DNA from: a virus
Strand: one strand, 5' to 3'
DNA: 42,383 nucleotides
Virus record (IMG/VR): IMGVR_UViG_3300034072_000964
Location: 1 to 42,383 of that record
Shown here one piece after another: positions 5,237-25,450 of this stretch. Within the stretch, counting starts at the first letter, position 1. Every line of letters begins with the position of its first letter. The translations under genes were made by a program, and so were the position numbers. Below the pieces are notes generated by a model. The model saw only the letters and a program-made list of their open reading frames with translations, searched no databases and was not told the origin of the DNA.

Positions 5237-5662
5237 TTAAGCAAAAGTTACATCCCCAGAGATTCTGAGCGTAAAGCTAGAATCAACTTTGGAGTCAACA
5301 GATCCGGAAACTGGAGCATTCATAACGTATGCTTTGAATGTTGCAGTTGAGGCATCCGAAAAAGTTACTTTGAAAGTTTTCAAAGCGCGGGATGCTTTAG
5401 CGGCGCGCAACGCGGCTTGGCCTGGGGCCGATGCATCTTTGACATAGGAAACATCAATGTTGAAGTTGCCGAAATCCTGCAAACCCATCAGCCATTCTTT
5501 AGCTGTTGATTTAAGATTGGTTTTATCAATCTCAGCGGCTTGGCCATCAAAGCCGTTAAACGCTGTTACCTCTTCGATTGACTGATAAACAGCTGGGGGG
5601 CCAACAGCCGTTTGAATGGCAATATCAAAGCCCTGGGCGGCTATAGCAACGGAATCTGGCAT
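5237..5662 (-). CDS. Major tail protein (TP901-1 / GTA g9-like)
   Basis: 141 aa. Canonical position between the tail terminator and the chaperones. The ..FNGFDGQAAEIDKTNLKS.. region is typical of this family as I recall it. Confidence 0.7.
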   Translation of the reverse strand: MPDSVAIAAQGFDIAIQTAVGPPAVYQSIEEVTAFNGFDGQAAEIDKTNLKSTAKEWLMGLQDFGNFNIDVSYVKDASAPGQAALRAAKASRALKTFKVTFSDASTATFKAYVMNAPVSGSVDSKVDSSFTLRISGDVTFA

Positions 5663-10869: not shown

Positions 10870-10915
10870 TTGGAAGATCTCCTTTAGGTTTCATATATGA
10901 GGCTTCATTATAGAC

Positions 10916-10946
10916 AAAAAAAGAGGGCTATGAAAGCCCTCTTTTC
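10916..10946 (-). terminator. Rho-independent terminator after the major capsid gene
   Basis: The minus strand reads AGAGGGCT-TTCAT-AGCCCTCT followed by TTTTTT: an 8-bp GC-rich stem, a 5-nt loop and a T run, 26 nt after the capsid stop. Confidence 0.7.
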
Positions 10947-10971
10947 CCCATCATGGCAGATGATCTATCTA

Positions 10972-19980: not shown

Positions 19981-20064
19981 ATGGTTGTTAATGGATAAGA
20001 ATGGATAAGAATAACACAAGAATTATATATATAAGTTATTGATATATATATTATATTATATTTC
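19981..20064. other. Candidate replication-origin-like region: 10-bp phased repeats plus a ~95% A+T tract
   Basis: ATGGATAAGA occurs twice in tandem (19991-20010), preceded by the degenerate copy ATGGTTGTTA. A 44-nt tract (20021-20064) is almost pure A/T. The region sits in a 269-nt gap next to the primase-helicase gene. Confidence 0.3.
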
Positions 20065-20237
20065 TTTCCCTCTTTCCCTATCTTATACATACTTTTTCTT
20101 TTTTGTCCCCTTTTGGGCGGGGCGCTTTTTTCTTTGGGAGAGGGTGTATAGGGGAATCTGGGAAAGAATTGCCAGTTTCCTTTTGAATCAAAAACTTAGG
20201 GTAATAATTCTTAGCCCGATTTGAGCATGGTCAACAA

Positions 20238-22421
20238 TTATTCGACAATCGAATAAGTGAGGGCGCGCCGCCCCCCGCCTTTGCCGCCTGTTGGCTGGGT
20301 AATCTCTATGGAGCCGCGATCAACAAGGCTGATTATTGCCCCTTCCCGCTGTTTTGAATCCATGCGGCGAGTTAAGCGGCAAAGTCTGGACTTGTCAACA
20401 GATCCACCGGAACGGCGGATTGCGCTCAAAATGTCATTGCAATCTTTTTCATGCTGGGAATCGGCCAGATGCTCTTCCACCATATCAATCATAAATTCAA
20501 CCGATTTCATAACCAGCGCCTCAGCAAAATCCAGATGCTCAGCCTTGATACGGGGCGCAATCTGATTTTCCGTTATGGCCAGAATCATGGCGATCTTAAT
20601 CACGTTTTCCCGATAGCGCCCCCAGAGCGCGCCAGCGTTGTTCCGATTCTCTTCCATCTTGGCATCTTCAAAATCGCCCATATCGTCAATACGATCCTGA
20701 AGCCCTGGCCATTCAACAACAATAGCATCCGGTTGAATGAGGCCGCTATTGGGCGCGCCGCCCTTGAAAGCCTTCCATGCGTTAACCAGCCATTCAGGGG
20801 GCGCTTGATAGACAACCCCGCGGCGGCGCTTTGGATTGTCCTGAGCGGCCTTTAAAACGATAAAGCGGTTCAATTCGCCGGATGTAATCGCATCCCTGTT
20901 GATAGCGCTGGTATATTTTTCCATTGTGGAAATGCCAAAGATGCAAAGGTTGGGGCTGGCAATGATAATTGGCTCAGCTTTCGTATCCGCATATTGCGCG
21001 CCGATATAGCGCCCAGATGATGCGCTATAAAGCTCAGTAATATTTTTGCTGGCAACTTTCATATGCGAAGCGCCGCGCTTATCCATGATGGCTTCCATCA
21101 TCATCCCAAATTCATCAAGATGCATGATCTGGGATGGCTTTTTGAAAACCGCCGTTAAAAGACCAGATCCAGACGCGATTGACTCCCCGCCAATAAACTC
21201 TTCCAATCCGGCATCAGCCAATAATTCTTTGATGCAAACTTTAGAATGGTTTTTCCCCGCGGCGGTTCCGGCAAGGCCAACTGTATAAATGTTTGTTCTG
21301 GTATTCATGGGGCTTTTATATCGCCGCCCGAAAACAGCGCCCAGCGCGGTAATCGTATTTTGAAGAGCTAATTCAGGCTGGGGCTTTTGCGCTGTTGATA
21401 AAATCCAGTTTACCGTTTCGCCAATGATGCCTGGAAATTCATTCAGCGGAATTTCAACCTTCTCTTCTTTCGATGTTTTGGATCTGAGAATATTTTTAAC
21501 GGCATCAGCGCCCATGTTGTAAAGCGTATCATCAACAGGCTGGATATAATTGTATCCATTCAAAACAGCCCTATCAACAACCGTTCCCATTGTGATCCCG
21601 CCGCCCTTGCGAAATGATCGCCAATGGAAATCACAATCTTTAACGCCTTTATATTTTGAACCCTTGGCGCTCCAGTTATTGAAGAGGCCGAAATCAAAGC
21701 CGCCATCAAAAAGACCCATCCCGATCTGAATCCAATCGGTATAAGTGCAATCTGGATCTATGAAGCTGAGCATTTCCGCAACATCATCATTAGACCAATC
21801 GACATTATCCGACTCGCCTATCTCTATATGCTCCGGCTCAACTTCTTTATGCCGGATAAGATCAATCAACCATTCCGGCGCATCAGCTATTTGCCAGCCT
21901 TGCGATTCATCCCAGCTGTATTGATTGCCTGAAGCGTGTTTTGAAGGGGGGCCAATGATATATCCGCCATCCCCTCTAACGTCTAAATTTTTCCCCAGCT
22001 TTGATGTACGGGTAACAATCTTTATTCCAGGATGCTTAAAGATAAGATGTTTCCCGCGGCCCGTTAAATTCGTAAGAGTTTTTGGAAGCGCGCCATGCTC
22101 AGCTTCCAGCGCATCAAGTGATTCTTCCCCGTTGATTCCATCAACATCAACCGCGAAAATCCCAGATACTTCCCCTGTAACGATTCCAATATTGAAATCT
22201 TTGGAGCCAAACATTTTGCGAATCTGAAACGCATCAGCGCTGGCATCTTTCAAGCCATTCTTTGTTGCCGGATGTTTGCCAATCTGTTTTGCCTGAGATC
22301 CGCCAGGAACATGATCAACATTGCCGCAAGTGCAAGAGCCATCAGATTGAACGGAATGAATCGGGAATACATGAAAACCAAATTCAGATGCGTATGATAG
22401 AGCTTTGGATAGTATTGTCAT
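20238..22421 (-). CDS. Bifunctional primase-polymerase (Prim-Pol) with PriCT and DUF3987-type helicase/NTPase domains
   Basis: 727 aa. FHVFPI...GKHP...FAVDVDG...GGYIIGPPSKH is a Prim-Pol signature. WIQIGMGL..WSAKGSKY is PriCT-like. GLAGTAAGKN is Walker A-like. Confidence 0.85.
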   Translation of the reverse strand: MTILSKALSYASEFGFHVFPIHSVQSDGSCTCGNVDHVPGGSQAKQIGKHPATKNGLKDASADAFQIRKMFGSKDFNIGIVTGEVSGIFAVDVDGINGEESLDALEAEHGALPKTLTNLTGRGKHLIFKHPGIKIVTRTSKLGKNLDVRGDGGYIIGPPSKHASGNQYSWDESQGWQIADAPEWLIDLIRHKEVEPEHIEIGESDNVDWSNDDVAEMLSFIDPDCTYTDWIQIGMGLFDGGFDFGLFNNWSAKGSKYKGVKDCDFHWRSFRKGGGITMGTVVDRAVLNGYNYIQPVDDTLYNMGADAVKNILRSKTSKEEKVEIPLNEFPGIIGETVNWILSTAQKPQPELALQNTITALGAVFGRRYKSPMNTRTNIYTVGLAGTAAGKNHSKVCIKELLADAGLEEFIGGESIASGSGLLTAVFKKPSQIMHLDEFGMMMEAIMDKRGASHMKVASKNITELYSASSGRYIGAQYADTKAEPIIIASPNLCIFGISTMEKYTSAINRDAITSGELNRFIVLKAAQDNPKRRRGVVYQAPPEWLVNAWKAFKGGAPNSGLIQPDAIVVEWPGLQDRIDDMGDFEDAKMEENRNNAGALWGRYRENVIKIAMILAITENQIAPRIKAEHLDFAEALVMKSVEFMIDMVEEHLADSQHEKDCNDILSAIRRSGGSVDKSRLCRLTRRMDSKQREGAIISLVDRGSIEITQPTGGKGGGRRALTYSIVE

Positions 22422-22939: not shown

Positions 22940-23770
22940 ATGGCAACTAAAAAAGATACGGCTGATAAATCTCATTCAGCAATGGTTGAAGAGCTTGATG
23001 CTCTTCCAGGCGTGACAACAACAGGCGGATTGCCGCCGCGCATTACAATTTACGGCCCCCCTAAAATCGGTAAATCATCTTTTGGCGCAATGGCCGACTC
23101 GCCGATCTTCCAACAAGCTGAAGATGGCCTTGATGCCCTGAAGGTTCCCGCCTTCCCAAAATTGGAATCGTTTTCTGATGCAATGAAAAATCTGGAAAAC
23201 CTCGCAACCAAAAAGCACAATTACAAAACCATTGTTACAGATTCGGCGGATCATCTTGAGCCGCTTATCTGGAAAGAAACCGCCGCCAGCGAAAACCTGA
23301 AATCAATTGAAGATTTTGGATATGGCAAGGGCTATATCAAAGCTCTTGATTTATGGCGGGAATATTTTGAAGCCATTGACTATCTCAGATCTGAGCGCGG
23401 CATGACTTCAGTAATGATTGCCCATCATCAAATCAAACGCTTTGAAAGCCCTGTTACTGATGCATATGATAAATATGAAATCAAACTTCATAAAAATGCA
23501 TCAGCGTTGCTAATCGAAAATTCCGATATTATTCTTTTTGCCAATTACTTTGTTGGCATCAAGAAAGAAGCCGATTCATCCCGCCAGAAAGATGATGATA
23601 AGCGCAAACGCGCAATCGGCTCAGGGGAACGCATTCTTTATACTGAAGAGCGCCCAGCATTTTCAGCCGGAAACCGTTACGGGCTTCCATCTGAAATTCC
23701 ATTTGATAAAGATGGATCTTATTGGGGCGTGATCGCCGATCATGTCCCATTCTTTAACGCCAACAAATAA
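22940..23770 (+). CDS. RecA-fold ATPase, AAA_24 / Sak4-like recombination protein
   Basis: 276 aa. Walker A is YGPPKIGKSS. TIVTDSADHL is Walker B-like. Followed by a DUF669-type gene, as is usual for Sak4 modules. Confidence 0.75.
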   Translation: MATKKDTADKSHSAMVEELDALPGVTTTGGLPPRITIYGPPKIGKSSFGAMADSPIFQQAEDGLDALKVPAFPKLESFSDAMKNLENLATKKHNYKTIVTDSADHLEPLIWKETAASENLKSIEDFGYGKGYIKALDLWREYFEAIDYLRSERGMTSVMIAHHQIKRFESPVTDAYDKYEIKLHKNASALLIENSDIILFANYFVGIKKEADSSRQKDDDKRKRAIGSGERILYTEERPAFSAGNRYGLPSEIPFDKDGSYWGVIADHVPFFNANK

Positions 23771-23781
23771 AGGAAACTGAA

Positions 23782-24333
23782 ATGGCAAAACTTGGACAAG
23801 TTGTTAACGCTGATGAAATTGAAGAGCGCAAAGGCTATGAACCTTTACCGCCTGGAGATTATACGGCAATGATAACGGAAAGCGAAATGAAGCCAACCGA
23901 TCATGGCCAAATGCTCGTTCTCACATTGGAAATTCAAGATGAAGAGTTTAAAGGCCGCAAGATCTTTGAACGCCTGAATATTGAACATTCCGGCAAGGAT
24001 ACCAGCGCAAAAACTGTTGAGATTGCTTATCAGGTTTTGGGCGAAATCATCCGCGCTTGCGGCAAGAAAACCATCAAAGATACTGAAGAGCTTCATAACA
24101 AGCGCCTCAATATCAAAGTACGGGTTGACGCGCCGAAAGAATACACTGACAAAAAAACCAAAGAAAAGAAAATGGGAACGGCTCAAAACAGCATTTCCAA
24201 ATATTCTGTTTTTGGATCTTCAACCGCCTCAGCTCCAAAGCAAAAAGCTGTTGAAGATAATTCAGAAAGCGATTCATCTGAAGGCGGCGAAACATCCGCG
24301 CCAGCTGAAAAGCCTTGGAAGAAAAAGAAATAA
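23782..24333 (+). CDS. DUF669-family protein (SSB-like partner of Sak4)
   Basis: 183 aa. LPPGDYTAMITESEMKPTDHGQMLVLTLEI..GRKIFERLN fits DUF669. Acidic, low-complexity tail. Confidence 0.65.
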   Translation: MAKLGQVVNADEIEERKGYEPLPPGDYTAMITESEMKPTDHGQMLVLTLEIQDEEFKGRKIFERLNIEHSGKDTSAKTVEIAYQVLGEIIRACGKKTIKDTEELHNKRLNIKVRVDAPKEYTDKKTKEKKMGTAQNSISKYSVFGSSTASAPKQKAVEDNSESDSSEGGETSAPAEKPWKKKK

Positions 24334-24348
24334 ATCAACAATGTAAAA

Positions 24349-24372
24349 GAGCGGCCCAGCGCCGCCCTTTTA
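24349..24372 (+). terminator. Putative intrinsic terminator after the DUF669 gene
   Basis: GAGCGGC-CCAGC-GCCGCCC is followed by TTTT. The T run is shared with the left arm of the 19-bp inverted repeat. Confidence 0.45.
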
Positions 24373-24467
24373 TCCATGCCCTGAAATGGAATCTGACTTG
24401 AAAGCCAGATCCATCTGAGTCCCCGCGCTTGCGGCATTTGGCTTATACTCAGGGCATGGATAAAAGG
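24366..24467 (+). other. Structured 102-nt element closed by a perfect 19-bp inverted repeat
   Basis: CCTTTTATCCATGCCCTGA (24366-24384) pairs with TCAGGGCATGGATAAAAGG (24449-24467). The 64-nt interior holds two further hairpins: ATGGAATCTG/CAGATCCAT and CTGAGT..CCGC-GCTT-GCGG..ACTCAG. Confidence 0.6.
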
Positions 24468-24484
24468 AAAAAAGGAAATCTGAT

Positions 24485-24685
24485 ATGCAATTCATCCTTG
24501 TTATAGTTGCCAGCGCTGGAATGGTTTATCCATCAATTGCTGTTGATCATATCGGCCATCTATCCCGCGCCGGATGCGAAACTGTGGCGGCTCAGCTGGA
24601 AGGCAAACCGAATATAAAGGCTGTATATTGTATTACATCCGATCAAACTTATACCAATGATGAAGCTGAAGAGGCGGCGCAATAA
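24485..24685 (+). CDS. Hypothetical small protein with hydrophobic N-terminus
   Basis: 66 aa. AAGGAAA RBS. The stop abuts the next ATG. Confidence 0.55.
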   Translation: MQFILVIVASAGMVYPSIAVDHIGHLSRAGCETVAAQLEGKPNIKAVYCITSDQTYTNDEAEEAAQ

Positions 24686-25450
24686 ATGGTTGCCATCCCC
24701 GATTCAACAGATCCAACGCTTGCCGCGATTGACGAAATTCTGGAGCGTAAAAACGCATCAGAGCCAAAGCGGAATTATCTGGGCGCATCATCTATTGCAG
24801 ATCCATGTAATAGAAAACTCTGGATGCGTTTGCATTCCCAGCGCAAAGAAGTTTTTGATGCCGATACGTTGCGCCGCTTTAATGATGGCCATCGTTCTGA
24901 AGATGTTATGGCCGCGCATTTGCGCCTAGTGCCAGGGATTGAATTGCATACATATATTGAAGGCATAAAACCCCCAGCGCTTATAAATGAATTTGATGAT
25001 CAACATGGCAAATGGAATCAATATGGCTTTGAGGATAAGAGTCTTGGCCCTAAAGTTTTTTCCGGCCATTATGATGGAGTCATTCTTGGAATTTTACAGG
25101 CCCCAAAAACTTGGCATATATGGGAACATAAAGCCGTAAATGAAAAGAAATTTGCGAAGGCTTTGGAATTGCGCCGCGCTGATGAAAAGAAAGCGCTGGA
25201 GCAATGGGATAAAGTCTATTATGGGCAAGCTGTAATCAATATGTTCAAAGAAGGCTTGACGCGGCATTATATGACGATCTCGACTCCAGGATGCCGCGCT
25301 TGGACAAGTTTCAGGACTGAAGAAAATCCGGTTTATGCTGAGGCTTTAATCAGAAAAGCTGGCCGGATCATCAACATGAAAACGCCGCCAGATTGTACCT
25401 GTCCAGTTCAATGGGGGCCATGCTTTCCAGGAGATCATTTACATGACTGA
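24686..25450 (+). CDS. PD-(D/E)xK nuclease (Cas4/RecB-like exonuclease of the recombination module)
   Basis: 254 aa. GHYDGVI...WEHKAV gives the D...ExK motif. C-terminal Cys cluster CTCPVQWGPC. Located next to the Sak4/DUF669 genes. Confidence 0.65.
   Translation: MVAIPDSTDPTLAAIDEILERKNASEPKRNYLGASSIADPCNRKLWMRLHSQRKEVFDADTLRRFNDGHRSEDVMAAHLRLVPGIELHTYIEGIKPPALINEFDDQHGKWNQYGFEDKSLGPKVFSGHYDGVILGILQAPKTWHIWEHKAVNEKKFAKALELRRADEKKALEQWDKVYYGQAVINMFKEGLTRHYMTISTPGCRAWTSFRTEENPVYAEALIRKAGRIINMKTPPDCTCPVQWGPCFPGDHLHD

Follow-up and report, generated by a model that had tools for sequence, protein, structure and literature searches.

Stable hairpins between the cistrons of one operon are known from several bacterial and phage transcripts. 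Intercistronic hairpins that stabilise mRNA or stop its decay include the puf operon stem-loop of Rhodobacter capsulatus and, in E. coli, the REP hairpins of the malEFG operon; among phages, RNase III processing sites are known from the T7 early mRNAs and from lambda sib/tI. When transcription reads through at lambda sib/tI, the terminator region becomes part of a longer double-stranded stem. Repeated words at the DNA level are likewise familiar: DnaA boxes adjoin AT-rich regions in many plasmid and phage origins, and the alpha primase-helicase of P4 binds a pair of sites, ori and crr.

In the archaeal plasmid pRN1, a stem-loop of ~100 nt that follows a putative terminator is essential for replication (Berkner et al. 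2014, PMC4234260). The integrity of the pRN1 stem is needed, restored stem symmetry rescued replication, and the stem-loop is functional when moved elsewhere in the plasmid (PMC4234260). In Bordetella phage BIP-1, a large stem-loop adjoins the homologous replication gene, and an origin has been proposed there (PMC4234260). Here we describe a 102-nt inverted-repeat element in an uncultured phage that resembles each of these systems in part: it lies between two cistrons, as do the RNA hairpins, it follows a terminator, and it shares a short word with an origin-like gap 4.4 kb away.

Architecture of the element and its neighbourhood

The window, meaning the whole stretch of DNA that was analysed (IMGVR_UViG_3300034072_000964), is the complete 42,383-bp genome of an uncultured phage and has direct terminal repeats. 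A nucleotide search of GenBank phages returned no match to the phage, a protein search with its primase-helicase returned cultured phages at <=30% identity only, and ARAGORN found no tRNA or tmRNA. In a profile search the primase-helicase (minus strand) matches Prim-Pol at 1.2e-38 and PriCT_2 at 8.2e-17, together with a weak match to DUF3987 below the cutoff. The early operon runs rightward in the order Sak4, DUF669 single-strand-binding protein (SSB), terminator, element, 66-aa ORF and Cas4-like exonuclease. The features that matter for the argument are as follows.

19991-20010, plus strand: two tandem ATGGATAAGA repeats, the word of the arms, in the origin-like gap that follows the 3' end of the PrimPol-helicase gene
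20238-22421, minus strand: primase-helicase gene (727 aa; Prim-Pol / PriCT_2 / SF3-type)
22940-23770, plus strand: Sak4-like AAA_24 ATPase gene, diverging from the primase-helicase gene
23782-24333, plus strand: DUF669 SSB gene
24344-24372, both strands: bidirectional intrinsic terminator after the DUF669 SSB gene, with a GC stem (GCGGC/GCCGC, 24351-24365) between an A-tract and a T-tract
24366-24384, plus strand: left arm of the 19-bp closing stem, CCTTTTATCCATGCCCTGA, which starts with the terminator T-tract and contains TTATCCAT
24385-24448, plus strand: variable interior of 64 nt (72 nt in the relative), with two predicted hairpins
24423-24434, plus strand: small hairpin CCGC-GCUU-GCGG; nothing else in the interior is conserved
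24449-24467, plus strand: right arm of the closing stem, TCAGGGCATGGATAAAAGG, which contains ATGGATAAAA
24468-24484, plus strand: purine-rich leader AAAAAAGGAAATCTGAT, which bears the Shine-Dalgarno sequence of the next ORF and has a similar tract in the relative
24485-24685, plus strand: small orphan ORF of 66 aa with a hydrophobic N-terminus
24526-24533, plus strand: third TTATCCAT word, 59 nt past the right arm and within the small ORF, not positionally conserved in the relative
24686-25450, plus strand: Cas4-like exonuclease gene, with further early genes beyond

The flanking genes lie on the same strand and the promoter scan lists no promoter-like site within the 24334-24484 gap (the closest, at 24480-24507, reaches into the small ORF), which places the element inside the operon. 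From this context we infer that the element is transcribed; a role in processing or stability is proposed.

The arms form a perfect 19-bp inverted repeat, being 100% complementary and 64 nt apart, as a preliminary description of the locus had reported. The same description correctly noted that the element contains two inverted TTATCCAT words, that the left arm shares the T run of the terminator, with whose T-tract it starts, and that the right arm ends 17 nt upstream of an ATG, at 24485. The arms are the sole perfect inverted repeat of such length in the genome, with none other coming close, and by our estimate the chance expectation for a perfect 19-bp repeat within 300 nt in 42 kb is ~5e-5. 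Folded as RNA, the 102 nt reach -50.5 kcal/mol with z = -7.8, a value that none of 200 shuffles equals; folded as DNA, they give z = -6.5. Two GANTC sites that had been singled out, at 24389 and 24417, are present, but they are not notable, because GANTC is over-represented genome-wide (245 sites versus 161 +/- 12 expected, or ~1 per 173 bp) and is absent from the element of the relative.

The terminator that precedes the element consists of the hairpin at 24351-24365 followed by CCTTTTAT, and a consensus scan recognises it on both strands. In the relative, its 5' half differs and the hairpin is kept. The terminator and the long stem had been proposed to be mutually exclusive; this is contradicted by the coordinates, since the last base of the GC stem is 24365 and the first of the arm is 24366, with no overlap. 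In both phages the terminator and the long helix coexist as contiguous helices in the minimum-energy and centroid folds, and competition with the left arm is limited to 4-5 optional A:U extension pairs of the terminator. An attenuator that works by alternative folds was rejected, because the 19-bp stem has no base in common with the terminator stem and the two form together. The 102-nt element itself does not have the form of an intrinsic terminator, its right arm being followed by AAAAAAGG with no T-run. A separate bidirectional terminator, ACAAAAAAAGAGGGCTATGAAAGCCCTCTTTTCCC at 10914-10948 of the window, is perfectly conserved in the relative over 35 nt.

The interior is less well defined than the stem. 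The branched interior with a three-way junction, as first described, is indeed given by the minimum-energy fold, but the relative lends it no support: folded without the closing stem, the interior of the window has z = -2.0 on the plus strand and -2.4 on the minus strand, whereas that of the sole homologue has z = 0.0 (plus) and +0.1 (minus), no better than shuffled sequence. The only interior feature common to both phages is a 4-bp hairpin with a GCUU loop. In the relative this small hairpin reads AUGC-GCUU-GCAU, both outer pairs being altered on both sides.

Conservation in one relative and across the SSB-exonuclease slot

The element was found in only one other genome, IMGVR_UViG_3300020045_007163 in IMG/VR, where it occupies the syntenic position. 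The exonuclease of this relative is 82% identical to that of the window and the SSB 72% identical; their aligned DNA is 71% identical genome-wide, with ~80 perfect runs of >=18 nt. The arms of the relative, GCCGCCCTTTTATCCATGCCCAGC on the left and GCTGGGCATGGATAAGAG on the right, enclose a 72-nt interior that is hardly alignable, and form a stem of 18 bp with one G-U pair. The compensatory changes that had been put forward as a check appear in this alignment (n = 2 genomes): the inner stem TGA/TCA becomes AGC/GCT, which amounts to two double-sided changes, from T-A and A-T pairs in the window to A-T and C-G pairs in the relative. A further substitution leaves one outer pair of the relative as G-U in a plus-strand transcript; read from the minus strand, this pair would be an A-C mismatch. 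The helix is present and conserved in both phages, its pairing is kept through substitutions, and it stands in an operon context.

Conservation of the arms extends to their sequence. Specifically, the outer 16 bp differ at 1 of 32 nt, against a background identity of 71-80%, and the relative shares without change a 21-nt run at 24361-24381, which takes in part of the left arm. The single substitution in the outer arms turns ATGGATAAAA into an exact copy of the repeat ATGGATAAGA. The centre-to-centre spacing of the arms is 83 bp in the window and 91 bp in the relative. The ORF that follows the element in the relative encodes 104 aa (L006 3704-4018) and is unrelated to the 66-aa ORF.

Relatives with 57-68% exonuclease identity, drawn from a protein collection, keep the synteny of PrimPol (minus strand), Sak4, DUF669 and exonuclease, and the arms are absent from them. 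Their SSB-exonuclease gap measures 52-105 nt and contains a GC-rich hairpin in each and a T-rich tail in most. In a set of 41 non-redundant relatives, the gap has a median length of 68 nt, and about three-quarters of the gaps fold very stably, several of them with long perfect stems around loops of 25-46 nt. The arm words of these other long slot hairpins do not recur elsewhere in their records, so that the common denominator is the slot itself, not a link to a second locus. An extra ORF is inserted in the slot in 6 of the 41 relatives, and most run straight from terminator to exonuclease. Taken together, this pattern suggests that the element and the small ORF are a lineage-specific elaboration of a family-wide post-SSB hairpin.

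The small ORFs that the slot takes are unrelated to one another: the 66-aa ORF of the window, for which no homologue was found among 5.8 billion proteins; the 104-aa ORF of the relative; and a 71-aa ExoX-like_C protein (L094 806-1021). In two relatives, the SSB-exonuclease gaps at L094 715-805 and L095 384-448 have in common a 13-nt hairpin loop, TTAGTGGATTTCT, on wholly different, complementary stems; this loop motif was not found in other loci and is not general.

The origin-like gap and the shared word

The gap 3' of the primase-helicase gene contains a 90-nt block at 19990-20079 (wider region 19985-20235) that is 100% identical in the relative and is the longest perfect run in the genome. 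An AT-rich tract lies in the block, together with two copies each of ATGGATAAGA and CTTTCCCT. Its AT-rich core, GAATTATATATATAAGTTATTGATA, occurs also in L246, a relative at ~60% protein identity, and around the block lie nested imperfect inverted repeats with TTCTTTC/GAAAGAA words, a nesting that is seen in the gap of four phages. The 19990-20079 block is the probable replication origin.

The word that links the gap to the element is ATGGATAARA, which occurs 4 times in 42 kb versus 0.66 expected, a count of four that 0 of 100 shuffles reach. The four copies in the window are the tandem pair at 19991-20010 and one per arm. In the relative, the tandem pair follows the primase-helicase gene, the arms lie 4.6 kb off, and there is one further copy; in the window, the distance from the element to the origin-like gap is 4.4 kb. 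A search for a regulon of TTATCCAT sites yielded, besides the origin repeats and the arms, no copy that is positionally conserved, and a literature search for the 8-mer returned primer sequences only. Scans for the tandem repeat pair and for the AT-rich core gave no further relatives. L246 and L247 carry other flanking repeats in the gap and are without the element.

The C-terminal DNA-binding region of the primase-helicase in L246 is about as conserved as the rest of the protein. Co-variation of this C-terminus with the word was rejected, since in L246, which has other repeats, the C-terminus is ordinarily conserved. L246 also has an inverted repeat of its own at 5409-5510, in the gap beside its primase-helicase gene: it spans 33 nt, is 85% complementary around a 36-nt spacer, and has a core of ~20 bp that is perfect (AATTCTTTCATTCTTTCTAT / ATAGAAAGAATGAAAGAATT). 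It is built as is the 102-nt element, but stands in the origin-like position.

Readings of the element

We tentatively read the element as an intercistronic RNA hairpin of a read-through transcript, which would serve as a decay barrier, as a double-strand RNase site, or as both. According to this proposal, the family-wide post-SSB hairpin and terminator would have been extended in the present lineage, such that a complementary segment, 64-72 nt further on, pairs with the U-tract of the terminator and the ~10 nt after it. The resulting 18-19-bp helix would abut the terminator hairpin with no spacer and would end just before the ribosome-binding site of the next ORF, and the small ORF behind the helix would be exchangeable. 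Transcripts that stop at the weak terminator would yield a stable SSB message; read-through transcripts would gain a long helix, which could block 3'-to-5' decay, let in a double-strand-specific nuclease of the RNase III type, or do both. The predicted outcome is abundant SSB mRNA uncoupled from the downstream catalytic genes, together with a defined 5' end of the downstream message. If the element acts in this manner, it would be one more phage case in which the ratio of an abundant SSB to catalytic recombination enzymes is set within one operon, unusual in that the terminator stacks on a long helix whose interior is free, and it would also mark a slot where small accessory ORFs swap.

We favour the RNA processing or stability reading because a stable hairpin occupies the slot across the family and because the stem shows compensatory changes and one change to a G-U pair. 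An interior that is free to vary is what would be expected if the stem alone matters. The conservation of the outer left arm can be attributed to its second role as the terminator U-tract, and the 35-nt conservation of the terminator at 10914-10948 indicates that such conservation is normal for RNA hairpins in this phage pair. RNase III sites generally take a stem of about two helical turns in a transcribed region; the stem here has 19 perfect bp in the window and 18 bp with one G-U pair in the relative, in a region that is probably transcribed, judging by its context. Counting against the RNA reading are the 64-72-nt unstructured interior, which is unusual for a processing hairpin; the single change in 32 nt of the outer arms, as a stem alone needs no sequence conservation; the ATGGATAARA word shared with the origin-like gap, which would have to be a coincidence (p ~0.03-0.1 by a rough estimate); and the ability of palindromes to homogenise by template switching without RNA selection.

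The element shares with the puf and REP hairpins and the RNase III sites a stable helix set between two cistrons of an operon, after a high-demand gene and with a leaky terminator; as at lambda sib/tI, read-through would lengthen the terminator region into a long stem; and the 18-19-bp helix is near the length that a double-strand RNase is generally understood to need. Unlike those hairpins, the element encloses 64-72 unconserved nt in place of a small loop or an internal-loop 'bubble', and its arms are conserved in sequence besides pairing.

The main and a serious rival, though in our judgement less probable, is that the element acts instead as DNA, as a cis element tied to replication and an auxiliary site 4.4 kb from the main origin-like gap. 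This could take either of two forms: the arms could be inverted origin words with a common reader, for which a lineage-specific phage protein and host DnaA are candidates, or an extruded stem-loop or cruciform could help the PrimPol/SF3 helicase to assemble. The distribution of ATGGATAARA speaks for a DNA role, since the word is confined to the arms and the origin-like tandem repeats in the window, and in the relative but for the one extra copy; so does its setting, the tandem copies lying in the 90-nt identical block whose AT-rich core reaches the ~60% relative. Relatives without the ATGGATAAGA repeats are also without the element, and the lone outer-arm substitution turns the word into an exact copy of the repeat. 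The word match is however only 8-10 nt long and was spotted post hoc, its TTTTAT part is a plain terminator T-tract, and the conservation of the arms runs on into GCCC, which is absent from the repeats. No AT-rich unwinding region adjoins the element, the change in arm spacing from 83 to 91 bp loses helical phasing, the coordinated change of inner pairs is unexplained by independent binding sites, and the long slot hairpins of other relatives show no second locus.

TTATCCAT matches the first 7 of the 9 positions of the DnaA box TTATCCACA, and 19991-20065 has the arrangement of a box-like word beside an AT-rich region; but TTATCCATG/T agrees with the box at 7/9 positions only, positions 8 and 9 being TG or TT, not CA. 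The primase-helicase is probably not the reader, given its C-terminal conservation in L246. As with P4 ori and crr, two non-coding loci 4.4-4.6 kb apart flank replication genes and have a short word in common; in contrast to crr, which consists of iteron arrays, the element has one inverted word per arm, no array and no AT-rich tract, and P4 alpha has a Toprim primase, whereas the C-terminus of the phage primase-helicase does not track the word.

A DNA role would have a parallel in pRN1. The phage encodes Prim-Pol, PriCT_2 and an SF3-type helicase, the protein class to which the pRN1 stem-loop origin belongs (PMC4234260), and shares with pRN1 a replication protein with PrimPol, helical (PriCT_2) and SF3-type helicase domains, as well as a putative terminator followed by a stem-loop of ~100 nt. 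In both, the stem matters and its sequence may vary, as seen from compensatory rescue in pRN1 and as suggested by compensatory substitutions in the element. The location differs: the pRN1 and BIP-1 stem-loops lie directly 3' of the replication gene, whereas the element lies 4.4 kb off, behind the SSB gene. The position where the pRN1/BIP-1 model puts the origin, 3' of the phage replication gene (19990-20212), has its own repeats and nested inverted repeats. Among pRN plasmids, moreover, the stem-loop sequence is unconserved and its flanks are conserved, whereas in the element the arms are conserved and the interior is not. A more specific proposal, to which we give a low probability, is that the element is a second, cruciform-type cis replication site, in which inverted origin words around an exchangeable core act together with the main gap; by analogy, a bacterial phage would then have its own version of the pRN1 stem-loop origin, in a two-site layout like that of P4 ori/crr. 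If the shared word is functional, it would provide a testable handle on start-site choice in PrimPol/SF3-helicase phages, a class for which the published evidence so far consists of pRN1 genetics and the BIP-1 prediction. Whichever of the RNA and DNA readings holds, the finding of more use may be the ultra-conserved, origin-like 90 nt at 19990-20079.

Three further explanations have less to recommend them. The element could be a functionless palindrome, a scar of the insertion of the small-ORF cassette that arose, for example, as a template-switch inverted duplication of the T-tract and was kept perfect by intrastrand correction. The lineage-restricted occurrence of element and extra ORF, the direct run from terminator to exonuclease in most relatives, the swap of the ORF behind the element between the two phages, and the seemingly unconstrained interior would all fit. 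We nevertheless regard this as improbable, because intrastrand correction preserves complementarity, not the identity of the arms across lineages that are 20-29% diverged, and both arms and the exact abutment on the terminator are kept in both phages. Still more doubtful is a minus-strand small RNA of ~130 nt that would end in the bidirectional terminator and be antisense to the first part of the small ORF. On the minus strand the score of the terminator is no lower than on the plus strand (12 pairs plus a T-run), the minus-strand T-run of the relative, TTTTTAAAATT, beats its plus-strand one, and the fold is of equal strength on both strands; against this, rightward of the element the promoter scan shows no promoter-like site on the minus strand, the one non-Watson-Crick pair of the relative is G-U when read from the plus strand but A-C from the minus strand, the frames of minus-strand ORFs are not kept between the phages, and there is no Rfam match. 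A remnant of a MITE or other mobile element, suggested by terminal inverted repeats around a variable core and by lineage-specific presence, is very improbable and is largely refuted by the single copy per genome and the lack of a flanking direct duplication; among the matches listed in the arm scans, there is no true copy beyond the syntenic one in the relative.

Several candidate classes were eliminated by direct searches. The element had been suggested to be a small structured RNA; across the whole window nothing reaches Rfam gathering scores, and the interior fold is not significant. The best permissive local matches are to miRNA models, at 20 bits (thresholds 51-75), and to 'DUF2815 RNA', at 15.4 (threshold 41.2), and membership in a known Rfam family was rejected, as all matches fall under the gathering thresholds. 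A retron was rejected since the genome has no RVT_1 match, the control genomes being positive. A conserved minus-strand ORF was likewise rejected: ORFs of 41 aa and 55 aa match only over the right arm and its flank, and the left-arm frames differ.

The suggestion of a MITE-like insertion, with copies elsewhere, found no backing in the collections either. A two-arm pattern was run against viral, metagenome and prokaryote genome collections, and among the at least 143 matches listed the only true one is the known relative; ~95 of these matches belong to a long palindromic repeat of sample Ga0268261, which has a tRNA-like core and no relation to the element, and the remainder are due to chance. 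A single-arm scan gave three chance matches without a second arm, and a protein-guided scan of metagenome contigs gave no close relative. The Ga0268261 repeat family (L098-L217, from that sample and a few others) is large and consists of near-perfect palindromes of ~75-105 nt, acaacagacaaaTATCCATGCCCCCGGTGGGATTCGAACCC...GGGTTCGAATCCCACCGGGGGCATGGATAtttgtctgttgt, with a tRNA T-arm-like core, often at contig ends and unrelated to the phage element. These palindromes look like a tRNA-derived repeat of the MITE/SINE type from some organism in the sample.
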